A DNA stretch of 63,249 nt, taken from the IMG/VR virus record IMGVR_UViG_3300032050_000128, positions 1 through 63,249 of that record, one strand, 5' to 3'. The translations under genes were made by a program, and so were the position numbers. The notes beneath the pieces are model-generated. The model worked only from the letters and a program-made list of their open reading frames with translations. It did no database searches and had not been told where the DNA came from. Shown one piece after another: positions 18,598 to 36,660 of this stretch. How positions within the stretch are numbered: the first letter of the stretch is position 1; each line of letters starts with the position of its first letter. This DNA is from a virus. Lineage: Duplodnaviria > Caudoviricetes.

Positions 18598-18849
18598 GTG
18601 GCGAGCAACTATCCACCCGGCGTGACCGGGTTCGAAACACAGATCGCCGGCGTGGACTCCGAGCTCACGGTCGACCATCGCGAGGCCTCGTGCCAGAACG
18701 ACGAGTGCGCCGAGTTCGACAAGACGGAAGAACGCCAGGTCGACTTGGAAACCTACTACGACCGCCACTCGGTATACGAGACCTGGTCTTGGTCCTGTCC
18801 GGTCTGCAACTCACGGGCGACCTTCGACCGGGAGTACGACCAGGACTAG
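18598..18849 (+). CDS. zinc-ribbon hypothetical protein
   Basis: SNYPPGVTG, CQNDEC, CPVC. Confidence 0.7.
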   Translation: MASNYPPGVTGFETQIAGVDSELTVDHREASCQNDECAEFDKTEERQVDLETYYDRHSVYETWSWSCPVCNSRATFDREYDQD

Positions 18850-18853
18850 TGCT

Positions 18854-18882
18854 TTTGCTTTGTCGCTCCCCTATGGTATAAT
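18854..18882 (+). promoter_or_regulatory. early promoter cassette
   Basis: TTTGCT-TTGTCGCTCCCCTATGG-TATAAT. Confidence 0.85.
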
Positions 18883-18904
18883 ACAATTACTCAACTAGAA
18901 AGGA

Positions 18905-19108
18905 GTGATTGTGCCAAGATACTCATTTAGGTTTGACGAAGTCTCAATGAACCAGGTGTGGTTCACCGCTGAGAACTTCGCTCACGCTGAAGAACTTCTT
19001 GAGAAGTGCCAAGACGAAGAGATGAACATCTCAGACCTGCCGGACGCAGAAGAGCGCAACCGCGGAATTCAACTTGACTTCAGCGTCTCAGTGCTTGAAG
19101 AGTTGTAG
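18905..19108 (+). CDS. acidic hypothetical protein
   Basis: AAAGGAG RBS; start GTG 18905 or 18911. Confidence 0.7.
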   Translation: MIVPRYSFRFDEVSMNQVWFTAENFAHAEELLEKCQDEEMNISDLPDAEERNRGIQLDFSVSVLEEL

Positions 19109-19133
19109 AAACGTCACTCCCCTATGGTATAAT
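19104..19133 (+). promoter_or_regulatory. early promoter cassette
   Basis: TGTAGA-AACGTCACTCCCCTATGG-TATAAT. Confidence 0.85.
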
Positions 19134-19139
19134 AGTTCA

Positions 19140-19219
19140 GTAGTCGGCGGAAACCCGTAGGGCGCCGAATAGAGATGAAGGCCACCGCGGTGGGAAACTG
19201 AGAATCTCGTTCCGACTAC
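19140..19219 (+). ncRNA. structured 5' leader RNA (multi-stem)
   Basis: GTAGTCGG/CCGACTAC closing stem with internal hairpins, starting at the predicted +1. Confidence 0.45.
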
Positions 19220-19242
19220 ACACAACGACGAAAGGACAAGCA

Positions 19243-19425
19243 ATGCCAATTCTGATAACTGATGGAAACGCTTTCGCAATCATCGGCGCTGGCCGCCGTG
19301 AGTTGGAGCGTACGGGACGTGGAGACGAAGTCTCAGCGTTCACTGCAGAGATGACTGCGGGCGACTACAACCATTTACTTCAAACTATGACGAAGTGGTT
19401 CCCCGACGCAGAGATTGCGGATTAA
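19243..19425 (+). CDS. conserved phage small protein (DGNAFAI family)
   Basis: DGNAFAIIG...GDYNHLL; ACGACGAAAGGAC leader. Confidence 0.8.
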   Translation: MPILITDGNAFAIIGAGRRELERTGRGDEVSAFTAEMTAGDYNHLLQTMTKWFPDAEIAD

Positions 19426-19427
19426 CG

Positions 19428-19709
19428 ATGACCCAGGCGACTATCTGGTGTAAGGGTCCGGCCACTCCGTGGTCGGGCCTAACCCCCCTTGAAAGATTTG
19501 CAATTATGTTTCGCCCAAACATCCTCAACGAGATTGGGTCCAAGTTTGGTTCGTGTGGTCCACAGACCGTGGAACTAGACACCTCAGACCCGAACGACGT
19601 ATGGCCGGACGACTGCCCCACCTGCGGGACAGACACACACTGGGATATGGATATGTTCTGGAGTATGCACCCAGAATACAAAGGACCAGACATAGAAGAG
19701 CTTATTTAA
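19428..19709 (+). CDS. hypothetical protein
   Basis: Start moved to MTQATIW; CPTC. Confidence 0.6.
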   Translation: MTQATIWCKGPATPWSGLTPLERFAIMFRPNILNEIGSKFGSCGPQTVELDTSDPNDVWPDDCPTCGTDTHWDMDMFWSMHPEYKGPDIEELI

Positions 19710-19735
19710 GGTTTGTCGCTGCCCTACGGTATAAT
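19707..19735 (+). promoter_or_regulatory. early promoter cassette
   Basis: TTGTCGCTGCCCTACGG-TATAAT-ACA, then GGTCAAA/TTTGACC hairpin. Confidence 0.8.
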
Positions 19736-19793
19736 ACATTCATAAGGTCAAAACAAAAGAGAGTTTGACCCCGGAACACGGAGAGGAGAAAAA

Positions 19794-20135
19794 GTGGATA
19801 AGCCAACCATTGTGACCACGAGCACGACCGTGTCTCGTACAGTCTCAAGTGTTGAACTTGACGGTGAAGGTGCTGCGCTGGTCGAGCGACTAGAAAACGC
19901 TCGCAAGCAGATTTCAGTTTACGAAGCCGAAAAAGACGAAGTGACAAAAGCGCTCAAAGAGCGAATTGGTGATGCAGACGCAGCAAGCGTCAATGGCGTC
20001 ACTCGAGTAGTTGTCCAGCACGTCGATTCAAGCAACATTGACCGGAAGATGCTTAGTGAGTTAGTTGCGCCAGAGATTGTCGCAAAAATCACAAAGCCAA
20101 ATCCTTACTCATACCTTAAGACCCTCAAGGCCTAA
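19794..20135 (+). CDS. coiled-coil protein, paralogue of 30144
   Basis: Shares NGV.RV...IDR..L....PE...Y..L with 30144..30473. Confidence 0.75.
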   Translation: MDKPTIVTTSTTVSRTVSSVELDGEGAALVERLENARKQISVYEAEKDEVTKALKERIGDADAASVNGVTRVVVQHVDSSNIDRKMLSELVAPEIVAKITKPNPYSYLKTLKA

Positions 20136-20146
20136 GGTTGCAAGCA

Positions 20147-20183
20147 GTGGAGTTCCGGGGGCTCATTGCCCCCGGACTTCACT
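20147..20183 (+). terminator. hairpin terminator
   Basis: TCCGGGGGC-TCATT-GCCCCCGGA with extended arms. Confidence 0.6.
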
Positions 20184-20217
20184 CTAAAATCCAACGACGA
20201 CAAAAATTGGAGTATCT

Positions 20218-20412
20218 ATGAGCAGCAAGTACAAAGACACAGAGTGGTACTGGCGCAAGCGCATTGCCACGGAGATTGAGCGCAAGGTCGCGTATGACGT
20301 AGAGTTCAAAGGCCTACACGACGCCGACGCCAGACTGATTCACGAGGAAATCGTGGACAAGGTAGTGCTCAAGGGGGCAGCAGAAGACGTTGGCTTTACA
20401 ACGTCAGCCTAA
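20218..20412 (+). CDS. hypothetical protein
   Basis: GGAG RBS. Confidence 0.65.
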   Translation: MSSKYKDTEWYWRKRIATEIERKVAYDVEFKGLHDADARLIHEEIVDKVVLKGAAEDVGFTTSA

Positions 20413-20423
20413 TACGATATAAT
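20395..20423 (+). promoter_or_regulatory. early promoter cassette
   Basis: TTTACA-ACGTCAGCCTAATACGA-TATAAT, then GCGGCT/AGCCGT hairpin. Confidence 0.85.
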
Positions 20424-20470
20424 AAGACTACTGCGGCTAACCCAGCCGTGGAAAACGACGAAAGGACAAA

Positions 20471-20950
20471 ATGGACAAAAAAGCTCATGTCCAGGGTCTG
20501 GCTCTCTACCTAGAGTACGAGAAGCCGTACGACACTGGCTTTGCAGTCCAACAGGTGCTGATAACACCTGATGGCTACAACAGCGAAGGTGTGCTCGTTC
20601 AGACGCACCTATACCGCCGACGTATGAAACCTGGCGAAGGCAAAAAGCAGTGGAAGGTCACTGCTACAAACGAAAAGATAGTAGCAGACGTACTCAGTGG
20701 TGAGGTTGCACAACTTGACGAAACCACCTGGGGTCAAAAAGCATTCATGCGTCTTGACTACGCAAATCCGCTATTCGACGCAATCGTCATTCAGCACTGG
20801 ACACTGCGTCAAAAGCCACTCGTGATGGAGGTCTCTCAAGTAGACCTAGATGACATCGCAAAAGGTAAGACTCCCTACAAACTTATGTACCGTATGCAGC
20901 AGTGCCGCCTAAAAGCCGGATTCCCTGCTGACGCGGTACCTGCAGCATAA
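20471..20950 (+). CDS. hypothetical protein
   Basis: ACGACGAAAGGAC leader. Confidence 0.8.
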   Translation: MDKKAHVQGLALYLEYEKPYDTGFAVQQVLITPDGYNSEGVLVQTHLYRRRMKPGEGKKQWKVTATNEKIVADVLSGEVAQLDETTWGQKAFMRLDYANPLFDAIVIQHWTLRQKPLVMEVSQVDLDDIAKGKTPYKLMYRMQQCRLKAGFPADAVPAA

Positions 20951-20959
20951 GGAGCCAAC

Positions 20960-22006
20960 GTGACTACAACATCTAATCCCTGGACTTCCAGGTACGACGA
21001 CAAACTTGGCACCTATGTCGAGCCAACAGGATTTCCACACACCGTGGCATCCCTGCTTGGGTTGGCAGCAGTGCAACAAGCGTATCCTGCTGGCAAAGAT
21101 ATACTCAACTCTCTAGTCTCAGACTCTGGTAGAGTAGTTATACGCGCCAACACTGTTATTGCTTCAAAGAAAGAGAGTGTAATGGAAAATGAAGTAGACT
21201 CTCTCGCTGGAGCAACAAAGTACACTCGCCCTAATGGTGAGGACTACTACACACGCAAGTGGGGTGAGCACGACGACGTAATGGTACTTCGTGAAGCTCG
21301 TGCAAGTAAACTTCACACTCTGCTCTATGGCGCTCCAGGCTGCGGCAAAACCGCTCTGCTAGAAGCAGCATTCTCCAACGAACCAGGTGGTATTGAAACC
21401 GTACTTGGTACCGGTGACACAGAACTTTCTGACTTCATTGGTGGCTACGTACAAGACAAAGACTCATTCAGATGGGTCGATGGACCACTCGTTCGTGCAC
21501 TCGAAAACGACTCAGTCTTCTTCATTGACGAAGTAGGTCTGATTGACCCTAAGGTCATGGCCGGTGTTTACGGAATCATGGACGGTCGTACAGAGTTGCT
21601 GATAACCGCAAACCCAGACCGCGGCGCAATAAAGGTGAAGGAAAACTTCTTCGTCGTCGCTGCGACAAACCCAAACGCTCCGGGAGTTCGTCTCTCTGAA
21701 GCACTCGTGTCTCGCTTTCGTCTGCAGTCAGAGATGACCACAGACTGGACGCTTGCACGTAAACTGGGCACACCTGTACAACTAGTTAATGCGGCGCAAA
21801 ATCTTGCACGCAAACAACAATCAAGTGAAGTGTCATGGGCACCTCAGATGCGAGAACTCCTCGCCTTCCGTGACATCTCATTAAAGTTCGGCACAAAGTT
21901 CGCATTAGCGAACCTCATCGCAAGTGCTCCCGAGCACGACCGCGCCGTCGTTGCGGACGTGTTAGGTCGAGTCTACGGTGAGGAGTGCCGACCAGCGAAG
22001 ATTTAA
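20960..22006 (+). CDS. MoxR/CbbQ/CobS-type AAA+ ATPase
   Basis: Walker A GAPGCGKT, WVDGPL, Walker B FFIDE, AATNP, ALVSRF. Confidence 0.92.
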   Translation: MTTTSNPWTSRYDDKLGTYVEPTGFPHTVASLLGLAAVQQAYPAGKDILNSLVSDSGRVVIRANTVIASKKESVMENEVDSLAGATKYTRPNGEDYYTRKWGEHDDVMVLREARASKLHTLLYGAPGCGKTALLEAAFSNEPGGIETVLGTGDTELSDFIGGYVQDKDSFRWVDGPLVRALENDSVFFIDEVGLIDPKVMAGVYGIMDGRTELLITANPDRGAIKVKENFFVVAATNPNAPGVRLSEALVSRFRLQSEMTTDWTLARKLGTPVQLVNAAQNLARKQQSSEVSWAPQMRELLAFRDISLKFGTKFALANLIASAPEHDRAVVADVLGRVYGEECRPAKI

Positions 22007-22062
22007 CTCTTCGTTGCTGGAGGAGGGGGAGGTACTGGGTCACCTCCCTCTCCACCCCTAAC

Positions 22063-22091
22063 TTTACTTATGGACCCCAACACGATATAAT
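22063..22091 (+). promoter_or_regulatory. early promoter cassette, preceded by terminator hairpin 22018-22054
   Basis: TTTACT-17-TATAAT-ACA. Confidence 0.85.
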
Positions 22092-22132
22092 ACATTCAAG
22101 AGTCTAAACCCTAAGAGAAGAGGACGTAAGAC

Positions 22133-23923
22133 ATGAACCACGTAGACTACACACCCGGTGTGCTTGGTCGGAAAAGTAGCACTCCTTCCGAGTGGCTACC
22201 TCTCAGTCGAGAGATTTCTGAACTGGTAAACACCTGGTCCAACCGCTCGGACATCGTTGCCTTCGTTGGTCCCGGTGCCGGTGGACAGACTGCCGCATTC
22301 TTCACTCCTGCTACTGCAGAGGTTGAAGTAAGCATTCCAATGGCATTTACCCCTTATGTCAAGCCAGAAGACATTGGCTCAATGCTCGACAAGAGCACTC
22401 AGTACGAATGGCCAAAAGCCACAGGTTGTATCTTTCACGAGGCAATGCACGCACGATACTCCTTGTGGGACCTAGCGAAAGCAGCAGAGGACCTTAATGA
22501 ATCCCAGCACCAGACACTCGTCCTGTTCGAAGAGTCCAGAGTCGAGTCTCGCGCCCTTACAATCGCGCCCGAGTACGTTAACTTCCTCCGTGCAAGTGCG
22601 CTCGAAATTGCGATTGACGACGCAGCCGAACAGTTTACAAAGAACTCTACAACTAGAAGTGCAGGTATGCTTGTCGCTCTCGTACACTCTAGAGTCGACG
22701 CAGGTATTCTCGACCAGCGTGACGTACAGGCTGTCTTCGACGTATGCAGTGACTGGCTCGGCGACGACCGAGTTTCTCGCCTTCGCGAAATCTTAAACAA
22801 GACTCGCACACACACAGACGACAAAAACATCACTGCGTTGTACCCTCTTGTCGACGAGTGGCTAGACATTCTAAAAGATGCAGCACAAGAGCATGGCGAG
22901 ACTTTGAACGACACACCTAGCAAAAGTTTAATCGCAGCACTGACTGAAGCATTGGCAGAAGCAGCCGACTGCGTAGCAGTGGGTGTCACTGCCTCTATCA
23001 ACGACGAACAGACTGAAGAAGAGCGTCGTCAATCAGTTGCAGCACGCTACAAAGCCTCTGCAGAGCAACATGACCACAAAGAGACATTCAGCAAAGTCTT
23101 TGGCAAATCAAGTGGTCCTGGTGCCTCAGACACAAGTTCAAGATTGATTGCTCACCGTCCACCAACTCCACAAGAGCGTGCAGCAGCAGTCTTGATTGGT
23201 AATGCACTGGAGAAGGCAAAGTACCGCGAGCGTGACATCACTGTCTCCGCTTCGCAGTTGCCTCCAGGACGTCTACACACTCGCACAGTAGTACAGGGTG
23301 CTGCCCAAAAGTCTGCAGGTGTACGTACGCCAGTGACTCCTTGGCGCAAGACCACACGCAAGCACACCGACGACCCCACACTATCAGTAGGTGTAATGGT
23401 AGACATCTCTGGCTCTATGGACTCAGCGATGCAACCAATGGCAACTACTGCGTGGGTAATGAGTGAGGCTGCACATCGCGTGCAGGGTCGCTATGCTCAG
23501 GTGTACTATGGCAACGACGTATTCTACTCAAGCAAGCCACTTGCAAGAGAGTACGAAGTAAACGTCTACACTGCGCACGATGGCACTGAAAAGTTTGAAA
23601 AAGCATTCAAGGCACTCGACGGCGCACTCAATCTGCTGCACGGTTCAGGTGCTCGCATGCTCGTTGTCGTAAGTGATGGTGAGTACACTCCAGACGAGCG
23701 CGCTCATACCGTCAAGTGGATGAAGGCTTGCAAAGATGCCGGCGTCGCCGTGCTGTGGGTACCGTTCGACAATTACGGTTCAGCACGTAGGTACGCCGAG
23801 CACGCAGACGGCGTAGTCATCGACACCAAGACATCGTCTGAAGTAGAACACGTCTCCAAAGAGATTGGCATGGCGGCGAGTAAATTACTGTCAAAGATTG
23901 GCATCAAGAATTCTGCGGCTTAA
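22133..23923 (+). CDS. CobT-like HExxH metallopeptidase plus vWA domain protein
   Basis: FHEAMHA, FEESRVE, MIDAS DISGSM, VVVSDG. Confidence 0.9.
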   Translation: MNHVDYTPGVLGRKSSTPSEWLPLSREISELVNTWSNRSDIVAFVGPGAGGQTAAFFTPATAEVEVSIPMAFTPYVKPEDIGSMLDKSTQYEWPKATGCIFHEAMHARYSLWDLAKAAEDLNESQHQTLVLFEESRVESRALTIAPEYVNFLRASALEIAIDDAAEQFTKNSTTRSAGMLVALVHSRVDAGILDQRDVQAVFDVCSDWLGDDRVSRLREILNKTRTHTDDKNITALYPLVDEWLDILKDAAQEHGETLNDTPSKSLIAALTEALAEAADCVAVGVTASINDEQTEEERRQSVAARYKASAEQHDHKETFSKVFGKSSGPGASDTSSRLIAHRPPTPQERAAAVLIGNALEKAKYRERDITVSASQLPPGRLHTRTVVQGAAQKSAGVRTPVTPWRKTTRKHTDDPTLSVGVMVDISGSMDSAMQPMATTAWVMSEAAHRVQGRYAQVYYGNDVFYSSKPLAREYEVNVYTAHDGTEKFEKAFKALDGALNLLHGSGARMLVVVSDGEYTPDERAHTVKWMKACKDAGVAVLWVPFDNYGSARRYAEHADGVVIDTKTSSEVEHVSKEIGMAASKLLSKIGIKNSAA

Positions 23924-24137
23924 GACCGACAGAACAAAATCCGCGCGGCACTCGTACACTTCTCTCGAGCGTCGCGCGGGCAAGACTCCAAGACGGCACG
24001 AGTACGTGTCGTCTACATTCACGTCGGACTACCGACCAAGCGGACTGGAACGAAGCAGCCTCCTCATGGGGCTGTGGTCGTACAGCCACTGGAGTCGGCA
24101 CATCTGGGCAGACCTGCGGAAGACCGGCACGAAGGAG

Positions 24138-24166
24138 TGTACTTTGTCGGCTAAACATGGTATAAT
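24138..24166 (+). promoter_or_regulatory. early promoter cassette
   Basis: TGTACT-TTGTCGGCTAAACATGG-TATAAT; leaderless ATG at 24173. Confidence 0.85.
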
Positions 24167-24172
24167 AGACTC

Positions 24173-24580
24173 ATGAATCAAACGACGATAGACGTACTAC
24201 AGATAACCGACCTGGTACATGCCGGCACCTTTGACGCGGACATAGACCAGCTCTCGACCGCAATCAACATGCGGCTCCAAGACCTTGGAAAGCTGCCGAA
24301 GACGGCGTCGAGCGGCCTCACGCCCTCGCGGACGTTCGCCAGTGCCCCATCCAAGAAGCTGGCCATCACCGACCTGTCGGTCGGCGACCGGGTGAAGTTC
24401 AACTCGGACTGCGGCACGAAGTACATGATTGGCCAGACCGGCACGGTCAAGTCGAAGCGGAGAACCAAAGTAGTGGTGACTCTCGATGACCCAGTCGGCC
24501 GGTTTGCACGGAGAGACTCGTCTGGCGCCGTGTACTCGGCACCGGTAGTGGCACCAGTCGGCATCCTGGAGAAGGTCTGA
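24173..24580 (+). CDS. SH3/KOW-like domain protein
   Basis: LSVGDRVKF...GQTGTVKSKRRTKVVV. Confidence 0.7.
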   Translation: MNQTTIDVLQITDLVHAGTFDADIDQLSTAINMRLQDLGKLPKTASSGLTPSRTFASAPSKKLAITDLSVGDRVKFNSDCGTKYMIGQTGTVKSKRRTKVVVTLDDPVGRFARRDSSGAVYSAPVVAPVGILEKV

Positions 24581-24816
24581 TGAGCGGCAAGAGTAGGCCG
24601 AAGAAGCGGCCAGGTCCAGTCTGGGTCGGTGAGAGACGGCAAGTAGTCATAGACCCGGTTCCACGGTGCGACTTCTGCTTGAGCAACGCCAAGTACGACG
24701 CGGCAAGCTTCACGGGCCCATGGGGCTACTTCTGCGAAGTACACTTCGCGTCGCTGGGCAACGGTAAACTAGGCGTAGGATACGGGCAAGAGATAGTCCA
24801 AACCAAGGGAGTGTAG
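24580..24816 (+). CDS. zinc-binding hypothetical protein
   Basis: CDFC..AKYDA...GPWGYFCEVHF...GVGYGQ. Confidence 0.75.
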   Translation: MSGKSRPKKRPGPVWVGERRQVVIDPVPRCDFCLSNAKYDAASFTGPWGYFCEVHFASLGNGKLGVGYGQEIVQTKGV

Positions 24817-24820
24817 CTTT

Positions 24821-25003
24821 ATGAGTCAACCATTCACAGTACGGGTAAACATCTGGGCAGACCTGTCCATAGAGGCCGAAACCATGGCCGAAGCGGTCGA
24901 GCAGGCCACTATGGCCGGAGTCTCGGTGAGCTGTCCGGTCGGCACGGCCACAGTCGACTCAGTCGCAGTATCGACCGAATCTGGAGACACCGGTCTGGCG
25001 TAG
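24821..25003 (+). CDS. hypothetical protein
   Basis: ORF track. Confidence 0.6.
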   Translation: MSQPFTVRVNIWADLSIEAETMAEAVEQATMAGVSVSCPVGTATVDSVAVSTESGDTGLA

Positions 25004-25032
25004 TTTACTTTGTCGCTCTATTATGGTATAAT
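25004..25032 (+). promoter_or_regulatory. early promoter cassette
   Basis: TTTACT-TTGTCGCTCTATTATGG-TATAAT, then GGTCAGAC-A-GTCTGACC hairpin. Confidence 0.88.
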
Positions 25033-25077
25033 ACATTTAATGGTCAGACAGTCTGACCGGAAAAGGACGAAAAGACG

Positions 25078-25317
25078 ATGGCAAGTACGGTCCAAGACCT
25101 GATTGACAGTCTCAACGAGATTGAGGACAAGACTCAGCACGTCTGCTTTCAGTACTACTTGAAAGAACACTTCGAGTACTGGAACGACGACATCTCAGAT
25201 GCGGCGTGGAAATACGCCTGCGAACGCGCACAGTCGGACGAATACTTCCCAAGTCCGGACGAACTCTTCACCTACGTGTCAGAGGGCGTCGACAACGAGA
25301 AAAAGGTGGAAGTCTGA
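25078..25317 (+). CDS. acidic hypothetical protein
   Basis: GGACGAAAAGACG leader. Confidence 0.75.
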   Translation: MASTVQDLIDSLNEIEDKTQHVCFQYYLKEHFEYWNDDISDAAWKYACERAQSDEYFPSPDELFTYVSEGVDNEKKVEV

Positions 25318-25571
25318 TGGCGACCAAATCTTTGTACCTGGCAAACGAGAACGGCGACTGGTGGGAGTTCAATCCCGACAGTGTCATCTACGTAATGCGG
25401 GCATCCGACATTCCAACAGACGTGGCAGCAGACCGTGAGTTGGACATCCGCGACGGCGTCATCTACGAGGCACCGGACAAGTTCGAGAAGACAATCTGGG
25501 AGTTCGGCACTCCGATAGAGGAGATGCACACCGACTTCATCAACATACTAGAGGGCGACGACTCGGTCTGA
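25317..25571 (+). CDS. acidic hypothetical protein
   Basis: TGATG overlap; MATKSLY. Confidence 0.7.
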   Translation: MATKSLYLANENGDWWEFNPDSVIYVMRASDIPTDVAADRELDIRDGVIYEAPDKFEKTIWEFGTPIEEMHTDFINILEGDDSV

Positions 25572-25580
25572 CACGCGTAG

Positions 25581-25609: not shown

Positions 25610-25616
25610 ACAATTA

Positions 25617-25697: not shown

Positions 25698-25730
25698 CCT
25701 TAAACCCAGCGACGAAAAGGACGGCAAGAG

Positions 25731-29708: not shown

Positions 29709-29727
29709 TTGCGGTAGAGTAGCGGCC

Positions 29728-29976
29728 ATGACAACCAAGATAGAAGTCGTGGCCTCTGCTGTACATAAGAACGGTAAAGGCGGAAAGCCGTACACCGTGG
29801 CAATCTTCGACGACCCCGCCGAGAGCGACACCAAGCTCGCGGTGCTCTTCGACGAACCGGGATACTGCGCGGTGTTCTCGTTGGAGGACCTGTCCAACAA
29901 CGAAGACCTGTCAGGAGACTGGACTGCGTCAAGGTACGAAGAGCAGCTGCGTCTAATCCTGTTCCCCGAGGAATAG
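29728..29976 (+). CDS. hypothetical protein
   Basis: HKNGKGG..Y.V..F pattern; ORF track. Confidence 0.7.
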   Translation: MTTKIEVVASAVHKNGKGGKPYTVAIFDDPAESDTKLAVLFDEPGYCAVFSLEDLSNNEDLSGDWTASRYEEQLRLILFPEE

Positions 29977-29979
29977 CTC

Positions 29980-30052
29980 GCCGTCTTAGCTCAGTCGGCA
30001 GAGCGACGCTCTCGTAAAGCGTAGGCCTCGGGTTCAATTCCCGAAGACGGCT
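29980..30052 (+). tRNA. tRNA-Thr(CGT)
   Basis: GCCGTCT/AGACGGC acceptor; ACGCT-CTCGTAA-AGCGT; GGTTCAATTCC. Confidence 0.94.
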
Positions 30053-30059
30053 CAAATAC

Positions 30060-30088
30060 TTTACTTTGTCGCTCCACTATAGTATAAT
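30060..30088 (+). promoter_or_regulatory. early promoter cassette
   Basis: TTTACT-TTGTCGCTCCACTATAG-TATAAT, then CCAACCGGTTGG. Confidence 0.88.
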
Positions 30089-30143
30089 ACATCTATTCAA
30101 CCAACCGGTTGGATAAAGACGAAAGACGAAGGGAAGTGGTCGA

Positions 30144-30473
30144 ATGGCCAGCACCAAGATAGAGACCAAAGTAGTGGTCTCCACAACTACCGACTCGGTC
30201 GAGCTCGGTAAAGAAGTAGAGAAGCTAATCGTTAGCTTCAACAGCACCAAAGCCGCCCTGAAGGCTCTAGAAGCTCAAAAGCTAGAGGTCGAGGGTCAAA
30301 TCAGAGAGCTCCTAGGAGACGCGGAGACTGGAACCATCAACGGCGTAGAACGAGTACGCATTCTCAAGCGCAATCGCAGCGGCATTGACCGCGAGACCCT
30401 GCAAGTATCTTTCCCAGAGGCATACACTGCCTGCCTAACCGAGACAGCCTACACGGTCCTCCAGGCCAAGTAA
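30144..30473 (+). CDS. coiled-coil protein, paralogue of 19794
   Basis: See 19794; resembles the C-terminal extension of YqaJ-type nucleases. Confidence 0.75.
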   Translation: MASTKIETKVVVSTTTDSVELGKEVEKLIVSFNSTKAALKALEAQKLEVEGQIRELLGDAETGTINGVERVRILKRNRSGIDRETLQVSFPEAYTACLTETAYTVLQAK

Positions 30474-30486
30474 GCAGTTCTCCCCG

Positions 30487-30526
30487 AGGAACCCCCGGTT
30501 TCATCTCCCGGGGGTTTCTTCCTTTT
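30487..30526 (+). terminator. intrinsic terminator
   Basis: AACCCCCGG...CCGGGGGTT followed by TCTTCCTTTT. Confidence 0.8.
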
Positions 30527-30530
30527 AGGG

Positions 30531-30559
30531 TGTACTTTGTCGGTCCATTACGGTATAAT
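30531..30559 (+). promoter_or_regulatory. early promoter cassette
   Basis: TGTACT-TTGTCGGTCCATTACGG-TATAAT, then TCGAACC/GGTTCGA hairpin. Confidence 0.88.
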
Positions 30560-30599
30560 ACATCTATCGAACCAAAGCGGTTCGAGAGATGAGGACAAG

Positions 30600-30893
30600 A
30601 TGAAGTACGGACTACTGCCAGACTCAGCGGTTCTTACTACCGGTAAGAAACTGGTGCGGACGAAGAACAAGCCACTCCAAACGCCTGCTGAGCAAGCCTA
30701 CGAGGCAACAGTACTGGTCGGAATGTTCTGGTCGATGCTGACCTGGGTACGATTCGCAAAATTATTTGCGGTCGTAGTTCTAGTCGTTGGCTTCGTGCTA
30801 GACGGGTTCACCGGTCTTGTGGTAGCGTACGTTCTTGCAAGTCCAATCGGTGGTCTTGTGTACTTGTCTCGCAAGTCAAAAGAGAGATGGTAA
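30600..30893 (+). CDS. membrane protein
   Basis: GAGGAC RBS; start moved to MKYGLL. Confidence 0.7.
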   Translation: MKYGLLPDSAVLTTGKKLVRTKNKPLQTPAEQAYEATVLVGMFWSMLTWVRFAKLFAVVVLVVGFVLDGFTGLVVAYVLASPIGGLVYLSRKSKERW

Positions 30894-30899
30894 TAAAAG

Positions 30900-31064
30900 A
30901 TGACGCTGTTGACAACTGACATTCTAGCAATCATCATTGCGCTCCTTGGAGCCTGCACTGTCATGATAATCAGCATCCGTGCCTACGGACGTCTGATGAA
31001 CGAGCACATCCAACTGGAGCGTGCACACGCCGAGTTGCTACACAAGAGCAAGGTCTCTTCGTGA
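30900..31064 (+). CDS. small membrane-anchored protein (54 aa)
   Basis: MTLLTTDILAIIIALLGA... Confidence 0.6.
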   Translation: MTLLTTDILAIIIALLGACTVMIISIRAYGRLMNEHIQLERAHAELLHKSKVSS

Positions 31065-31252
31065 AGCAGTGCAAGACTTTCAACTGCGAGAGCACTGACC
31101 TCGTCTACTCAGGAGTAGCCGCCTTCACGCTCGGAGGTATCCCCACCGAGACGTACTGCTACCGGTGCGGAAACGCATACGCGATGATTAAAAAAGACAT
31201 AGAAGAGATGGCCGAAGCGTACAGAGCGGCAGAAGCAGCCAAAGCTCAGTAG
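31061..31252 (+). CDS. zinc-binding hypothetical protein
   Basis: CKTFNC...CYRC. Confidence 0.7.
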   Translation: MKQCKTFNCESTDLVYSGVAAFTLGGIPTETYCYRCGNAYAMIKKDIEEMAEAYRAAEAAKAQ

Positions 31253-31253
31253 C

Positions 31254-31544
31254 ATGGCAAAGATAGAAGACCCGTACAACACTCCAATCGACTACATCGT
31301 GCGGAGTGCCGGTACTCTCTGTGGCTGGTGCATGATGGGTGAGCACGACAAGTGCAAGCCTTCCATCCGCTACTACCACCGTCTCTACGTCTGCAGCTGC
31401 AAGCTCGGCTGCGCGGACGAGAGCTTCGTGCAGCTGCACAAGAAGCACCCGACCAAAGACGAGTACGAGAACGGAACCAAAAAGAAATCCGGGCAGACAT
31501 CTCAGGAGCCCGCAGGGGCAAGCAGCTTGACTGCCGAAGGCTAG
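31254..31544 (+). CDS. Cys/His-rich hypothetical protein
   Basis: CGWCMMGEHDKC...CSC. Confidence 0.7.
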   Translation: MAKIEDPYNTPIDYIVRSAGTLCGWCMMGEHDKCKPSIRYYHRLYVCSCKLGCADESFVQLHKKHPTKDEYENGTKKKSGQTSQEPAGASSLTAEG

Positions 31545-31711
31545 TATTCCCGGGTAAGCCTTAGAAACCTGTGCAAACGAGACAAGGTGTGCGTGACGTG
31601 TTGTCGAACTAGTCTCGTCCCTGCAGTGAGCGATGGGGCAGCTTCGGGCTGCCTATACGAAGCATCGGACTAGCGCACACCAACCTTTTTAGAAACACCT
31701 GCCGGCTAGGG

Positions 31712-31740
31712 TGTACTTTGTCACCTTCCTGCGCTATAAT
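31712..31740 (+). promoter_or_regulatory. early promoter cassette
   Basis: TGTACT-TTGTCACCTTCCTGCGC-TATAAT-ACA. Confidence 0.88.
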
Positions 31741-31747
31741 ACATCTA

Positions 31748-31832
31748 TACAGTTCACCAGGAGTTCGGTGGCCAAACTGAGGGGTCGAAATCCTAGGAGC
31801 CCCGGCAAACAACTCCGACCTGGTGGACTGTA
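31748..31832 (+). ncRNA. structured 5' leader RNA
   Basis: 14-bp closing stem TACAGTTCACCAGG/CCTGGTGGACTGTA; inner GGGG/CCCC and TCCTAGGA. Confidence 0.5.
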
Positions 31833-31853
31833 CCTAACAAGGAGGAACGACAC

Positions 31854-32165
31854 ATGATGCTGCTCACCAAGGAGCTGCGGACCAAGCTGCCCAAGCTGTA
31901 CTCACAAGAGGACAAGGGCCTAGACGCCAAGGCGCTGGTCAAGTTTTTCACGCCGTACTCAAGCTGGACTTGGTACGCGTCCGAGTTCGACGGAGAAGAC
32001 CTGTTCTTCGGACTGGTCGATGGACTGGAGCGAGAGCTGGGCTACTTCTCCCTCAAGGAGCTGGAGAGCCTGACCGCCAGCTTCGGCGCGGTCGAGGTGC
32101 CAGGAGTCGAGCGAGACCGCAATTGGGAACCAAAGACCCTGCGAGAACTGCTGGACAAAGCCTAG
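31854..32165 (+). CDS. DUF2958-family protein
   Basis: VKFFTP...WTWYASE.D..DLFFGLV...ELGYFSLKEL...VERD. Confidence 0.88.
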   Translation: MMLLTKELRTKLPKLYSQEDKGLDAKALVKFFTPYSSWTWYASEFDGEDLFFGLVDGLERELGYFSLKELESLTASFGAVEVPGVERDRNWEPKTLRELLDKA

Positions 32166-32175
32166 ACCAGCCTGC

Positions 32176-32204
32176 TGTACTTGGGCAGGGAGATACGGTA
32201 TAAT
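32176..32204 (+). promoter_or_regulatory. early promoter cassette
   Basis: TGTACT-17-TATAAT, then GCCGGAC-A-GTCCGGC hairpin. Confidence 0.85.
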
Positions 32205-32252
32205 AATCCTAGTGCCGGACAGTCCGGCCAAATGACAAAAGACGGAGCAACC

Positions 32253-32504
32253 ATGACAAAAGTGTATCAGTCCCCGATACGCGAGGCAGAGACCAAGCCT
32301 GAGACCACCTGGCGCGTGACCACACGCGGTTGGGTAGTGCTGGGCATGGCGATGCTGCTTGTAGCCATCGGGATTAACCACGTAATTGCAGACAGACACG
32401 TAATCTGTGACTGGAGACAAGGCGTGACCCCATGCCAAATCATGACAACAGACGAGCTACTGGAATCAGTGTTCCCTGAATCTGTCGGAACGGAGAAGCC
32501 ATAA
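32253..32504 (+). CDS. single-pass membrane protein
   Basis: WRVTTRGWVV followed by a TM helix; GGAG RBS. Confidence 0.7.
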   Translation: MTKVYQSPIREAETKPETTWRVTTRGWVVLGMAMLLVAIGINHVIADRHVICDWRQGVTPCQIMTTDELLESVFPESVGTEKP

Positions 32505-32521
32505 AAGAAGACATAAGAGTA

Positions 32522-32917
32522 ATGAACACGCCCGACCTTCAGCGTCTGTGCAAGCAGGCAGAGGAGCTGGGCTTCAACAGATACCCTTCTGCGGTAGACC
32601 TAGGCGCAATGCGCCTGGACCCAGACGGTTTTCACATAGCCAAACTCGTGCTGTTCAATCACGAGGGGCTTACTAATAGGGACATAGTCCATCACCGCAT
32701 CAACGTACTCGCAAAAAAGTGGGAGAACCTAGAGCCACACCAAGACCCGACGCCGGTAGAGTTCACGCTCGACATGCGCGCCGAGGAGTGGGAGAGTCTG
32801 CAGGACGTAGAGTCCTTCAACCGGGCCCTCATCCTGATTGCGGACAGAGTGCCAAAAGAGACGCGCGACCGTGGGCCCATGGGCAGACGGGCACGAAAAC
32901 TCTTCTTGAACGCATAG
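32522..32917 (+). CDS. hypothetical protein
   Basis: ORF track. Confidence 0.7.
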   Translation: MNTPDLQRLCKQAEELGFNRYPSAVDLGAMRLDPDGFHIAKLVLFNHEGLTNRDIVHHRINVLAKKWENLEPHQDPTPVEFTLDMRAEEWESLQDVESFNRALILIADRVPKETRDRGPMGRRARKLFLNA

Positions 32918-33064
32918 ATTTACCGGTCAGTGAGCCGGTAAGTTGCGGGTCGACTTGGTTGCTTCGTCTCCCCGCAGCAGCTTTCCTGCGTCTCAGCCTG
33001 TACCTCGACATGGCAGGCTGGGCCAGGAAGTCGCGAAATCAGTAAGAAACACCGGGAGTCAGGT

Positions 33065-33093
33065 TTTACTTTCTGACGAAAACGGTGCATCCT
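33065..33093 (+). promoter_or_regulatory. variant early promoter
   Basis: TTTACT-17-CATCCT-ATACA, then TGCCC/GGGCA hairpin. Confidence 0.55.
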
Positions 33094-33153
33094 ATACACC
33101 ACCTTGCCCCGCAGCGGGCACAAAGACAGACTACACAGAACAGGAAAAGACAC

Positions 33154-33345
33154 ATGGCAACAGCAGTAGACTTATCAACACAAGCAGGACAGCTTTACAC
33201 ATCCGGTCTCGCGGTCGAGGCAATCGCGAAGGAACTCAGCGTCACCTATCGCACAGCTCGCAAGGCAGTGCAGCTCTCCGGCGTAGAGCTACGCGACCCA
33301 TCCGAGCGTCTCAAGGGTCGCACAAGAAAGTCTCCGCTAGCGTGA
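33154..33345 (+). CDS. single-HTH DNA-binding protein, paralogue of 16175
   Basis: LYTSGLAVEAIAKELSVTYRTARKAVQLSGVELR. Confidence 0.8.
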   Translation: MATAVDLSTQAGQLYTSGLAVEAIAKELSVTYRTARKAVQLSGVELRDPSERLKGRTRKSPLA

Positions 33346-33506
33346 ACGGACTCAAGTTCAAGGACGTAGTCTGGTCCGCAGTCCTGGCCGTGGTGCTCAG
33401 CGCAGCCGCGCTCGTGGCAGCAGCTGTGGGAACCGACCGTGCGGTGTTGGCCCTGGGCCTCAGCGCCATCGCAGCCGCAGTGCTGTCAATCCGAGAGCGA
33501 GTCTAG
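33342..33506 (+). CDS. two-helix membrane protein
   Basis: GTGA overlap; hydrophobic. Confidence 0.6.
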   Translation: MNGLKFKDVVWSAVLAVVLSAAALVAAAVGTDRAVLALGLSAIAAAVLSIRERV

Positions 33507-33617
33507 GGTGTACTTCAGAGTCATGCTCGCGTTGAACACGTGGACGCTCAGGCGCCTCCAGCGTGCAATGAAGAAGAGATACCCAACCAGGCAGCTGGAG
33601 CTGCCGAAGCGCTAGAC

Positions 33618-33646
33618 TTTACTTTCCAGCGCAGGTATGGTATAAT
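33618..33646 (+). promoter_or_regulatory. early promoter cassette
   Basis: TTTACT-17-TATAAT, then GGAGTAGA-CCA-TCTACTCC hairpin. Confidence 0.88.
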
Positions 33647-33687
33647 AGTACAGGGAGTAGACCATCTACTCCAGTACGGAGGACAGA

Positions 33688-34137
33688 ATGACGACAGTAG
33701 CAGAGCAGCTCACCCTGTTCGGCCCTGGACCCAAGCCGGCGGACAAACCGGTCTCAAAGGGCGCCTGGCTGGACACAAGAGAGGCACTTTCTCGCATTCC
33801 AGTTTCTAAGTATGCGGTGCCGAGTGAGACGGTCGCACACGTGTTGAACAGTCCAGAGTCTAACGACCTGGTCTTCTTCGAGGTGCGAGTCTACATGGGA
33901 ACCACGTACATGCGGCAGCTACACGGTGCACCAGGACACTTCAACAGGTCCAAGATGACGCCGGCGCAGCAGCAGGCACTCGTGAACGTAGTCGTCCACG
34001 ACCCGTACAAGTACGCCAGGCTGTTCGGCGAGCACCACCGGTGCTGCGCCAGATGCGGTGCACAACTCACAGACCAAAAGAGTCGAGAGCGACTGCTTGG
34101 TCCCGAGTGTGTCAAGTACTTCCCCTCAGTCGCCTAA
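33688..34137 (+). CDS. DUF6011-type zinc-finger protein
   Basis: CARCGAQLTDQKSRERLLGPEC. Confidence 0.8.
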   Translation: MTTVAEQLTLFGPGPKPADKPVSKGAWLDTREALSRIPVSKYAVPSETVAHVLNSPESNDLVFFEVRVYMGTTYMRQLHGAPGHFNRSKMTPAQQQALVNVVVHDPYKYARLFGEHHRCCARCGAQLTDQKSRERLLGPECVKYFPSVA

Positions 34138-34169
34138 CCGCGACGAAACAAGACGAAAGGACGTATAAA

Positions 34170-34589
34170 GTGTGGATTTTTACAGAAACCGGCTTCGTGT
34201 CTGCGGTCTCAGACCGCGAGATACCAGGCCAGCTAGTCGTGCGCGCTCGTGACCGAGCAGCACTAGAGCCGCTCCAGGTGGCCATCTTCGCCATGCAGGA
34301 GCAGGAGGTCGCTATCCTGAACACTCCGGAGGCAGACTATCCGTACAGACTGTACGTAGACCAGAACATCTTCGCTCGCTGGGCTGCACACTCAGTCCGC
34401 GACATCACCTACTCCAACTTCAAGGGCAGGTGCGCCAGCACCCTGCCGGTCGAGTACTCAGACGCACTGCACGACGTCTGGTCCGCGATGCACCAGGTCG
34501 AAGATGCAGACGCACGACCGGACTACGAAGAAAACACGTCGTTAGGGAGTGTTTCTTATCTTCCTACGGCACATGACGTGCTAAACTAG
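34170..34589 (+). CDS. conserved hypothetical protein
   Basis: WIFTETGFVSAV...VVRAR...DYPYR...YSNFK; GACGAAAGGAC leader. Confidence 0.78.
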   Translation: MWIFTETGFVSAVSDREIPGQLVVRARDRAALEPLQVAIFAMQEQEVAILNTPEADYPYRLYVDQNIFARWAAHSVRDITYSNFKGRCASTLPVEYSDALHDVWSAMHQVEDADARPDYEENTSLGSVSYLPTAHDVLN

Positions 34590-34617
34590 GCAGAGGAAAA
34601 GACTAGGAGAACCACAA

Positions 34618-34677
34618 ATGAACCACCTGTCCCATCCATCTAACCTGTTGAACTTGGTCGGAGACCAGTCAGCATAG
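34618..34677 (+). CDS. 19-aa candidate leader peptide
   Basis: TGcTAAACT -10, AGGAG RBS, MNHLSHPSNLLNLVGDQSA. Confidence 0.4.
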   Translation: MNHLSHPSNLLNLVGDQSA

Positions 34678-34697
34678 CCAACTCAAAGTCGGCCTAA

Positions 34698-34769
34698 GCA
34701 GAGGAGACGTCGCCATCGACGTCCCAAGAGCCGCAGAATCCAAACCATAACAGGACTGCGTCCGTCTGC
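34698..34769 (+). ncRNA. three-way-junction RNA upstream of the cell-wall hydrolase
   Basis: P1 GCAGA-GGA/TCC-G-TCTGC; P2 GACGTCG/CGACGTC; P3 CGCAG..TCC/GGA-CTGCG. Confidence 0.5.
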
Positions 34770-34791
34770 CCACCCCTACATCGGAGGAAAC

Positions 34792-35427
34792 TTGCGAAAC
34801 ATCCTGAACAAGAAGCCAAAGCCAGCGGTGATACTGTTGGTACAAGTAATGCTTTGCCTGGCCATCTGGAACCCGAGCATCACGGTGCTGCGGTCAGAGG
34901 CCGAAGTAAAGACAGAGAACGAGTCGAGTGCACGCCTGCTGATGCCGGCTGACTTCGTCCGCGACATACTACACAAGCTGGCACCGAAGGCGGACGCAGA
35001 GCGTCTGGCCCAGTTCAAAGACAGAACCGAACCGCTGACCGACGTACAGCTGCGGCAGCTGCTCGAGGCCGTGGGCTTCGAGGGCAAGAGCCTGAAGACC
35101 GCCTGGGCGATAGCCAAGGCCGAGTCGAACGGCAGACCGCTGGCCTGGAACAAGAACGCGCTCAGTGGCGACAACTCCATGGGAGTCTTTCAGATAAACA
35201 TGATTGGCGACCTGGGTGCGGACCGAGTCAAGAAGTTCAACCTGGACCACCCGAGAGAGCTGCTGGACCCTGTGACCAACGCAGCTATCACATACTACAT
35301 GAGCAAGGCTGGCACCAACTGGAGCGCCTGGTCCACATACGGTGGCAACCGTGCGGCCGAGTGGGCAGCCAAGTTCCCGTCCAGTCCTGGCCAGTGTGCC
35401 GTGGACAAGCAAGCAAAGAAGGTGTAG
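34792..35427 (+). CDS. membrane-anchored lytic transglycosylase (SLT/lysozyme-like)
   Basis: N-terminal TM; AIAKAES catalytic Glu, GVFQIN, DPVTNA, WSAW; GGAGG RBS before TTG. Confidence 0.87.
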   Translation: MRNILNKKPKPAVILLVQVMLCLAIWNPSITVLRSEAEVKTENESSARLLMPADFVRDILHKLAPKADAERLAQFKDRTEPLTDVQLRQLLEAVGFEGKSLKTAWAIAKAESNGRPLAWNKNALSGDNSMGVFQINMIGDLGADRVKKFNLDHPRELLDPVTNAAITYYMSKAGTNWSAWSTYGGNRAAEWAAKFPSSPGQCAVDKQAKKV

Positions 35428-35436
35428 GATACACAC

Positions 35437-36039
35437 ATGACTGAAGAATGGTACAACCCCAATGCGGTCGACACCGACGGTGACGGCCTAGTACAAGACG
35501 GAACAGCGTTCCAGCGTCCAGCCAAGCGTAGCCAAGCGGGCAAGGGCGAAGAGACAGTGTTCGAAGCGCCTGAGCTCGTCGCCGAGGAACCAGCTGTCGA
35601 ACCAGCTGCGGAACCAGCTGCGGAGCCAGTCCAGGTCGCAGAGGTCGCAGCCGTGGAAGAGCCACCAGCTGCAGAGCCTGAGCTCGCGCCTGCGCCAGAA
35701 CCAGAGCCAGAGCCAGTCCAGGTCGTAGCCGAGCCACCAGCTGCGGTCGCCCCAGTCGAGCGTGTCGTAGACGCAGATGCGGTAGACGTAGTGTTGGCAG
35801 CGCTGACGTACCCAGGCGTAAACAAGAACTCAGCCTCAGTCCGACGTGTACAGTACCAGCTCTACCACGCCGGGTATGCGGACGTGACTGCGGACCAAGA
35901 CGGCCACTACGCCGAGGGAACCTTTAATGCGGTGTCCAAGTTTCAAGCTACCCAGGGTCTGGACGTCACAGGCATCCTCGACAGAACCACGCTCGAGAAA
36001 CTATTTGCAAACCAGCCTGGAGTACGAATCGTACTCTAG
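35437..36039 (+). CDS. peptidoglycan-binding domain protein with Pro/Glu/Ala linker
   Basis: DTDGDGLVQDGT N-terminus; VRRVQYQL...DGHY...T.NAVSKFQ..QGLDVTG. Confidence 0.82.
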   Translation: MTEEWYNPNAVDTDGDGLVQDGTAFQRPAKRSQAGKGEETVFEAPELVAEEPAVEPAAEPAAEPVQVAEVAAVEEPPAAEPELAPAPEPEPEPVQVVAEPPAAVAPVERVVDADAVDVVLAALTYPGVNKNSASVRRVQYQLYHAGYADVTADQDGHYAEGTFNAVSKFQATQGLDVTGILDRTTLEKLFANQPGVRIVL

Positions 36040-36600
36040 ACCGTGTCGCCTACGCGTACGCGTCGCAGCTGCACAGCACGACAGCGCACACAGCTCGCAA
36101 GCTAGCTGGCTAGGCGCACACACATCGTAGGACCAGTCGACAGCCTGGCCTGGACTTTCCCCCGTGGAAAGCTGGGACCAGGCTTTCTTCATGTCAGAGC
36201 ACAGGCCAGCTCGAGCTCAGCGCTCACAGCTCGTAGGCCCATCCCTAGCCACGTCTCCGAGGCAGACAGCTTGTCAGCTCGTCAGCTCGTCAGCAAGCTA
36301 CAACTTCCAAGGCACAGGCAACAAGCTCGCTCGTCAATAACATTCTCGACAAAGCCCAGCTCAGCACATGTCCTAGTCACATAGGTTACCCGCCTGCCTC
36401 ATGCCCCCGCCCCTATGCCTAGGCACTAGGCACTAAGCTCAGCTGCACATTCGCAGTTCCACGATACAGGAACAAAGCTAGACAAGCAAGCCTAGCCCCT
36501 TAAGGGGGCGGAGACGTTTCGAAGCTTCGCGCACAGTAAGTACGGCCTTCTGTCGCGGCAAAGTCATTTTTACTTAAGCTTCACTTTTTTAGCTTAATCG
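36040..36600. repeat. non-coding AGCT-dense repeat tract
   Basis: About 20 AGCT by hand count; tandem GTCAGCTC and CTAGGCA units; no credible ORF. Confidence 0.65.
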
Positions 36601-36660
36601 TACAAATAGTGCCGCACCTCGATCTGCACAGAAGTCTCAAACAGGTGTACGATACTAAAC

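Follow-up and report, generated by a model that had tools for sequence, protein, structure and literature searches.

Why should a phage genome that elsewhere carries the tetranucleotide GATC at its chance frequency lack it altogether over 18 consecutive kilobases? The question is raised by the IMG/VR virus record IMGVR_UViG_3300032050_000128 (Duplodnaviria; Caudoviricetes), the whole of which, 63,249 bp, is called here the window. The window is the full record, yet it is part of a larger genome (~118+ kb) that belongs to an uncultured freshwater actinophage. It holds 109 GATC sites in total; the last before the gap lies at 18642 and the next at 36621, as the original prediction for this DNA had claimed. 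A computed scan of the intervening block finds 0 sites against 38.4 expected from a maximal-order Markov model based on the block's own trinucleotides, while the DNA outside the block contains 109 against 109.2 expected. The feature holds up: it is highly significant, has been maintained in evolution and would be a new member of the T5-type class of first-exposed, restriction-site-avoiding DNA, in an unrelated and abundant group of actinophages.

The deficit is specific to this word. Counting palindromes against the Markov null, a check put forward together with the original prediction, singles out GATC as by far the most depleted in the block and near expectation outside it. The other 15 four-base palindromes occur in the block at about their expected numbers, with the exception of ATAT (5 against 17.9). 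The z score of GATC in the block (-6.2) is the lowest of any 4-, 5- or 6-mer; AATC and CATC, each one base removed from it, are enriched there. An unbiased largest-gap scan of 569 motifs ranks GATC first, with an approximate P of 1.6e-14. The GC content of the block equals that of the remainder (0.537 and 0.540, respectively). DNA nearly identical to the block is present in 20 sequencing runs from 16 studies, nearly all labelled freshwater (13 of these 20 runs are flagged as possible sources). One contig of run X14 (39,181 bp) extends from 18003 to beyond 37000; run X6 has contigs over 18004-21685 and over 32920-37000+. An assembly chimera is ruled out since independent public assemblies thus span both block edges.

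The same test in related genomes, also suggested at the outset, reveals holes with near-identical edges in one long contig and three further loci. The window is collinear from end to end with G001, an IMG/VR contig of 117,837 bp to which it is 75-92% identical at the nucleotide level. GATC occurs 147 times in G001, with a gap of 16.6 kb at the homologous position; the left edge of this gap is 1.7 kb farther right because two GATC occur there that the window is without. Locus L107 (82-88% identity) carries 12 sites left of the boundary, where 9.9 are expected, and 2 against 23.3 in the 11.0 kb of block that it covers. In the more diverged L110 (~66-77% nucleotide identity; its vWA protein is 63% identical), three GATC in the first 898 bp are followed by none over 16.0 kb, where 38.5 are expected. 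Across the right edge, L016 (96% identity) passes from 0 against 8.0 expected to 11 against 11.3.

Substitutions and codons tell how the absence is kept up. The window block contains 826 four-base words one change away from GATC; at the observed substitution rates, 19.5 of them are expected as GATC in G001 and 3 are found. Gains in the G001 flanks are also below expectation (6 against 22.8 and 18 against 28.6), and are too few, so that the whole G001 genome is under some GATC selection. In the genes of the block ATC, which in other contexts is their main isoleucine codon (68 of 109), is never used directly after G (0 of 41). The aspartate codon GAT is never followed by C (0 of 51). The corresponding fractions in the late genes are 22/65 and 28/121. 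Site avoidance runs through synonymous, context-dependent codon choice, and there is very little doubt that it reflects region-specific selection against restriction sites.

The signal is not confined to GATC nor to the closest relatives. A block is present in five of 11 whole or near-whole genomes of relatives (G001, G002, G003, G004 and G006) and absent in the other six, namely G005, the phage DSL-LC01 and the cultured phages Pumpernickel, Atuin, Phendrix and Sixama. Three of the genomes with a block, G003, G004 and G006, are entirely without GATC (324, 329 and 207 expected, respectively). In G002 this site is depleted about fourfold throughout, and the 19.4 kb before the portal gene contain 4 against 16.9 expected at the genome's own depleted rate (P 2e-4). 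When the relatives are scanned for the palindrome with the largest gap, holes of 16-23 kb appear for other motifs, each ending shortly before the portal gene (Table 1). The purged motifs differ between lineages: GTAC in G002, CATG and TGCA in G003, ATAT and TTAA in G004, TGCA and CATG in G006. For instance, the G004 block contains 0 ATAT against 72.3 expected and 1 TTAA against 86.9, while the rest of that genome contains 444 against 468.6 and 209 against 441.4, respectively. For CATG in G003 the figures are 0 against 47.4 in the block and 259 against 387.7 in the rest.

The blocks of G002, G003, G004 and G006 are 18-23 kb long and their right ends lie 1.6-6 kb upstream of the portal gene. Their limits, as those of G002-G006 in general, were taken from the data, and the only a-priori prediction was that a block should lie directly upstream of the portal. 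The median observed/expected ratio of palindromes within the block is 0.38 in G002, 0.50 in G003, 0.15 in G004 and 0.34 in G006; palindromes with a ratio below 0.25 number 5, 6, 9 and 8 of 16, respectively. As a control, none of 120 non-palindromic 4-mers falls below 0.25 in these blocks, and their medians are 1.02-1.04. In the remainder of the same four genomes the palindrome medians are 0.57-0.83. The window and G001 represent a single-motif form (1 of 16 palindromes), and G005 shows none.

The right edge is common to all: it is an ORF-free tract (ORF, open reading frame) just before the homolog of the window's helix-turn-helix (HTH) gene at 36661, where the packaging/portal module starts. 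ORF-free tracts of at least 400 bp occupy this place in 4 of 5 genomes. The gene at the left edge varies: the AAA-vWA gene pair belongs to the block in the window, G002 and G004 but is excluded from it in G003 and G006. What delimits the segment is its position and length, not which genes it contains, and this suggests that some physical feature of the DNA molecule is responsible.

The original prediction had the block exposed to a GATC-targeting defence. This claim is well supported by the palindrome-specific deficit, its conservation in diverged relatives, the codon footprint and the purging of other palindromes from the same position in relatives. It proves stronger than could have been known from a single genome, because the signal generalises across the family. 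Short palindromes are reportedly depleted relative to composition in phages (Rusinov et al. 2018, PMC6286503). The window departs from such whole-genome avoidance in that a sharply bounded block is affected and the rest stands at neutral expectation, whereas the wholly GATC-free G003, G004 and G006 resemble it.

A precedent for positional avoidance is provided by T5-like coliphages. According to PMC10644984, restriction-modification (R-M) systems are effective against them only if the sites lie in the first-step-transfer terminal repeat. According to that source and the preprint 10.1101/866236, in T5 and BF23 a terminal repeat of ~10 kb enters first, its pre-early genes are expressed from host-RNA-polymerase promoters, and the remaining genome is protected once they have been expressed. 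The preprint puts the T5 injection stop signal within an extensive untranslated region, rich in repeats, with which the terminal repeat ends, and T5 A1 has been proposed to act as a restriction enzyme. For Autographiviridae, PMC12455610 reports that the location of R-M motifs in the leading region decides sensitivity and that anti-defence genes sit there.

In likeness to T5 first-step-transfer DNA, the window phage has a site-free block (18 kb) with candidate early-type promoters; the non-coding tract at the end of the block may be the counterpart of the untranslated T5 region, and the repeats of cultured relatives are 17-20 kb long. It differs in belonging to an unrelated phage group, in the length of the block, which is about twice that of T5, and in being known from sequence alone; moreover, the block is shorter than the region that gene homology equates with a terminal repeat (see below). 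The T7-like leading region is a parallel with differences: it is short, is concerned with type I motifs and enters by transcription, whereas here 18-23 kb are purged of 4-bp, type II-like palindromes and the presumed promoters point toward the presumed terminus.

It appears probable that the block is a positionally defined segment of ~18 kb, likely the terminal and first-entering one, that is exposed to host type II restriction in the manner of T5 first-step-transfer DNA. The cause of the purge would then probably be the order of entry or an early window of exposure. In the scheme we favour, the block would lie at a terminus and enter first, matching the direct terminal repeats of 17-20 kb in cultured relatives, and would carry strong early promoters of the host type. 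Entry would be stepwise or slow, and the DNA of the block would be inside the cell, unprotected, while host type II restriction is still active. A block gene may neutralise restriction; the block products, or the delay that they create, would protect the remaining ~100 kb, which would be free to keep GATC at a neutral frequency. The site affected in the window's lineage is essentially GATC alone. The graded picture among relatives (avoidance in the block only, in the block with mild genome-wide depletion, or in the whole genome) is what one would see if the strength of protection varied by lineage, being high in some and leaky or lacking in the rest. A broader proposal is more tentative. It assumes a two-stage delivery throughout a large, environmentally abundant family, in which a leading segment of defined length, about 18-23 kb, at one end of the genome enters first and leaves a 'restriction shadow', a sharply limited block cleared of those 4-bp palindromes that local hosts cleave. 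The ORFan-rich block would encode a broad, novel inhibitor of type II restriction, thanks to which the remaining ~100 kb could retain such sites.

That the block enters first or is a long terminal repeat, as the original prediction had it, is supported only indirectly. Perfect direct terminal repeats are present in all four cultured relatives examined: 19,963 bp in Pumpernickel, 17,312 in Atuin, 7,752 in Phendrix and 1,702 in Sixama. The Pumpernickel repeat consists of 52 small rightward genes, four of which have homologs in the window, at 14508, 27276, 33688 and 35437. It ends inside a repeat-rich non-coding tract of ~700 bp, ~60 bp before the next gene. In the window the first GATC after the block (36621) is 40 bp upstream of the next gene, and the repeat tract that the original prediction had noticed at 36040-36600 is genuine, largely ORF-free and non-coding. 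Going by the gene homologies, the counterpart of the terminal repeat would be window positions ~14.4-36.6 kb, with the GATC-free block making up the rightmost 18 kb of it. Should the right end of the repeat be a physical terminus, the 18-23 kb purged in every lineage are the DNA nearest to that terminus.

Pumpernickel and Atuin, phages of Microbacterium and Arthrobacter respectively, are homologous to the window phage (their portal proteins are 58.6% and 47.9% identical to that of the window), and their repeats resemble the block and its surroundings in their small rightward genes, four of them with homologs in or beside the block, in the conserved first repeat gene and in the non-coding end tract. 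They are unlike the block in showing no repeat-specific palindrome avoidance and in leaving the AAA and vWA genes outside the repeat; a repeat in the window is predicted from homology. Whether the block is a direct terminal repeat, or part of one, is close to an even question, with the balance tipped slightly to the negative.

The block was also said to coincide with the early-promoter region, which is true in part. Promoter-like cassettes of the form TTTACTTTGTCG...GGTATAATA, recognised by consensus match, number 23 and fall into families D1-D6. The word TATAATA occurs 23 times in the window against 1.13 expected, always between 13786 and 33647 and nowhere else, and GGTATAATA occurs 17 times against 0.16 expected. 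Eighteen of the 23 sigma-70-like candidate cassettes lie within the block, but five lie to its left in GATC-rich DNA, so that the array is shifted relative to the block by ~5 kb at the left and ~3 kb at the right.

The DNA to the left has features of its own. The segment 13001-18645 is GC-rich (60-70% against 54% overall) and contains the homolog of the first terminal-repeat gene. The equivalent segment of G002 is GC-rich as well (50.6% against 43.5%) and neutral in GATC content. The GATC clusters just left of the boundary were considered as a functional site and rejected: there are 10 sites in 846 bp against 7.1 expected locally, and 12 against 11.9 in G002. G001 lacks a segment of ~260 bp at the left block edge (18602-18862), which accounts for the greater part of an acidic ORF of 83 amino acids (18598-18849); this ORF holds the boundary GATC at 18642. 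The two edges have no evident motif in common: comparing 13.5-19 kb on the left with 35.9-36.9 kb on the right gave chance-level matches of 10-13 nt only.

Several observations weigh against this reading or limit it. Selection on the window's own short branch has weak backing: a polarised test, covering 8.2 kb, expects 3.0 new GATC and sees 0 (P 0.05) and is underpowered. The homolog of the first repeat gene lies about 3.2-4 kb left of the block, in GATC-rich DNA with 24 sites and five of the 23 cassettes; because of this gene and these cassettes, neither 'terminal repeat' nor 'early region' is by itself an adequate name for the block. Repeat-specific avoidance of palindromes is absent in the three cultured repeats tested (median observed/expected 0.95-0.99 in 3/3). 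The best single words in the Pumpernickel, Atuin, Phendrix and Sixama repeats reach P 0.005-0.03 before multiple-test correction, and none is convincing. DSL-LC01 (880 GATC) and G005 (446 against 555 expected) have neither a gap nor a block. With the promoters all aimed at the proposed terminus, a T7-style, transcription-driven entry from that end is not indicated.

Read depth speaks neither for nor against a terminal repeat. The Logan contigs, which provide mean depths only, show no clean 2x step over the block. From left flank to block the mean contig depth rises from 29.7 to 34.1 in run X14 (1.15x) and from 166 to 238-246 in run X6 (1.45x), and the right-hand drop in X6 is near 32.4-32.9 kb, not 36.6 kb. 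Two runs searched as raw reads, X23 and X24, gave tRNA matches only and no phage. Finally, no known anti-restriction, nuclease, nuclease-inhibitor or methylase family was found with PHROG and Pfam in the 25 of 42 candidate block ORFs scanned, nor did any of these 25 match T5 A1 or A2, another difference from T5 first-step-transfer DNA. The original interpretation as a whole is partly supported.

An alternative model assumes that the whole genome enters at once and that the block is differentially exposed, either because the rest is modified or bound by protein or because only transcribed early DNA is accessible. Such exposure would likewise yield position-limited avoidance. It would agree with the overlap between the block and the host-type promoter array, and DSL-LC01 does encode enzymes of the nucleotide-modification type (thymidylate synthase, dCMP deaminase, glycosyltransferases and methyltransferases). 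Yet the block edges depart from the array (five cassettes fall in GATC-rich DNA, and the block's last 3 kb contain none), and they do not track gene identity across lineages. In addition, no known mechanism of modification spares a fixed ~20 kb, and no Dam-type (D12-class) or N6/N4 methyltransferase was found in G001. We regard differential exposure as unlikely.

Self-avoidance is somewhat less probable still. Here an early phage nuclease specific for GATC would degrade the host DNA, and the block would have to survive it while the rest is absent or protected. A similar idea has been proposed for T5 first-step-transfer DNA (10.1101/866236), and a single nuclease predicts what the window block displays, namely the avoidance of essentially one site. 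Against this, 5-9 palindromes are purged from the blocks of relatives, a better fit to diverse host R-M systems, and no nuclease family is represented among the scanned block ORFs, two small paralogs matching only the C-terminal part of phrog_434. Self-avoidance would also still require stepwise entry or a protected remainder.

Could the hole be mere historical baggage, the block having been acquired whole from a GATC-avoiding relative? Candidate donors of this sort exist in the wholly GATC-free G003, G004 and G006. Of 55 loci, counted from 9 kb upward and including some duplicates, 15 are likewise without GATC. Moreover, the block is less diverged from G001 (10%) than are its flanks (15-19%), and the GC content shifts at its left edge. 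A mosaic origin is nevertheless very improbable, since the boundary is kept in L110 at ~70% identity with 0 sites against 38.5 expected, GATC gains in G001 are fewer than expected and the block genes bear the context-dependent codon footprint. Furthermore, five lineages have the block at the same position with different motifs, the same motifs being more mildly depleted in the rest of their genomes, and the other tetranucleotides are equal between block and flanks. Least credible of all is a regulatory GATC, for instance a Dam-type methylation signal controlling packaging or late promoters and hence excluded from early DNA: the dense sites just left of the block (10 in 846 bp) suit it, but they match local expectation there and in G002, GATC has a neutral frequency throughout the coding DNA outside the block, G001 has no D12-class or N6/N4 methyltransferase that could be found, and relatives purge unrelated palindromes from the same block.

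To our knowledge, experimental proof of stepwise delivery with a restriction-naive leading segment is essentially limited to T5-like coliphages; the leading region of T7-like phages obeys a related rule. The same evolutionary signature, far stronger, is legible from sequence alone in unrelated and widespread freshwater actinophages, where in some lineages 9 of the 16 four-base palindromes have been erased from one block of ~20 kb and not from the remaining genome. A literature search (subscription journals and supplements lay outside it) turned up no earlier description of palindrome avoidance limited to a block in these phages. Entry of the block as the first DNA would make the signature a computational marker for first-exposed DNA in uncultured phages. 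If this is true, the shadow alone would give the polarity of entry and the length of the first step from metagenomic contigs. It also offers a testable prediction for Pumpernickel and Atuin, namely which end enters first, and a compact set of ORFans in which to seek new anti-restriction proteins.

As to the surroundings of the block, the portal, major capsid, protease, tail and adaptor genes are found to its right. The window portal matches 877 actinophage records and is closest to those of Microbacterium, Arthrobacter and Gordonia phages; the best matches are the metagenome-assembled Actinomycetia phage DSL-LC01 (67%) and Microbacterium/Arthrobacter phages of 186-194 kb (48-59%). The family comprises at least 593 portal relatives. 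The block itself gives zero megablast matches against 50,697 phage records. It contains ~42 candidate small ORFs, nearly all rightward and many of them acidic; small acidic ORFans lie at 18905, 25078, 26196 and 29257-29976. The features are collected in Table 1.

Table 1. Positions of the block, its flanks and the annotated genes in the window, with the corresponding holes and blocks of relatives.
Genome	Feature	Position	Strand	Remarks
Window	Promoter-like cassettes (23)	13786..33647	20 on +, 3 on -	Minus-strand cassettes at 13786, 28637 and 29033; consensus match only
Window	GC-rich left flank (63%)	13786..18645	+	Early-type promoters (candidate); GATC 24 against 18.9 expected, i.e. local expectation
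Window	Homolog of the first terminal-repeat gene of Pumpernickel and Atuin	14508..15431	+	tblastn 36%, E 1e-40, Pumpernickel 110-832; 31%, Atuin 94-489
Window	tRNA-Pro (CGG)	17959..18033	+	0.6 kb left of block edge; ARAGORN, Rfam
Window	GATC-free block	18646..36620	.	17,975 bp; 0 GATC against 38.4 expected; homologous holes in G001, L107, L110 and L016
Window	AAA+ ATPase (MoxR/CobS-like)	20960..22006	+	phrog_16448, E 2.4e-50
Window	vWA/CobT-like protein	22133..23923	+	Weak match to VWA_CoxE; within block here, outside in G003 and G006
Window	HTH DNA-binding protein	27276..27917	+	Pfam HTH_50; tblastn 36% identity to Pumpernickel terminal-repeat gene gp49
Window	tRNA-Thr (CGT)	29980..30053	+	Within block; ARAGORN, Rfam
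Window	DUF6011 protein	33688..34137	+	Homolog of Pumpernickel terminal-repeat gene gp40
Window	SLT lysozyme-like protein and peptidoglycan-binding protein	34792..36039	+	Final two block genes; SLT_3 E 3.4e-17, PG_binding_1 E 1.5e-14
Window	Non-coding tract with short repeats	36040..36660	.	620 bp; right block edge; ORF-free at 36193-36580; 72% identical to G001
Window	HTH protein and next ORF	36661..37847	+	First right of block; homologs of Pumpernickel packaging-module gp76/gp77, tblastn 42%/34% identity
Window	Portal protein	39157..40941	+	phrog_776, E 2.3e-103; landmark for aligning relatives
G002	GTAC hole			20.7 kb
G003	CATG hole			21.1 kb
G004	ATAT hole			23.2 kb
G006	TGCA hole			16.7 kb
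G006	CATG hole			16.9 kb
G002	Block	~122-140 kb		Composite palindrome counts per kb, step-like edges
G003	Block	~80-102 kb		Composite palindrome counts per kb, step-like edges
G004	Block	~96-119 kb		Composite palindrome counts per kb, step-like edges
G006	Block	~15-36 kb		Composite palindrome counts per kb, step-like edges

The two small paralogs within the block, at 19794-20135 and 30144-30473, match phrog_1956 (unknown function) in addition to the C-terminal part of phrog_434 ('RecE-like exonuclease'). Directly past the portal region lies a giant ORF (41759-51166; 3,135 amino acids) without Pfam or PHROG match; its counterpart in DSL-LC01 has ~3,289 amino acids, is annotated as hypothetical and is 44% identical over 286 amino acids. 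A gene for the large terminase, TerL, was not found in the window or in G001 (88% complete). Its place varies among relatives: G003, G005 and G006 have it within the block region, and in G002 and G004 it is far off, on the opposite strand. In the depleted blocks of G003 and G006 the palindrome density of TerL is intermediate, as if it were a recent arrival still unpurged. The G002 contig (160,704 bp) contains two non-identical portal genes ~136 kb apart, 66-67% identical to that of the window, and may be a concatenation of two related genomes.

Other words are also unevenly distributed. Some palindromes are absent genome-wide: AGCT in G004 and G006, TCGA in G004, and both ATAT and TTAA in DSL-LC01. 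The 50 kb of Pumpernickel that were sampled are without CGATCG, CCGCGG, CTCGAG and GCCGGC. A 15.5-kb gap in TATA within the Atuin repeat was examined as a candidate and is not significant against the Markov null. In the window, holes of 3-7 kb in AGCTG, AGCTA and AGCT occur at 17971-24814, in the left part of the block, and similar ones in G001; their significance is uncertain because AGCT-type words cluster elsewhere, which makes a uniform null unsafe. ATAT is missing from 22089-37958 (15.9 kb, 0 against 12.7 expected), all five ATAT sites of the block being in its first 3.5 kb. A second motif, GTWAC, is scarce over a stretch broader than the GATC-free block: window positions 10001-38000 contain 6 against 17.7 expected and the rest 55 against 45.3, and in G001rc the segment 18001-46000 contains 7 against 22.6 and the rest 132 against 131.8. 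L107 and L110 have 0 against 9.6 and 0 against 4.5, respectively. This depletion may reflect a second restriction specificity that acts on the entire early region.

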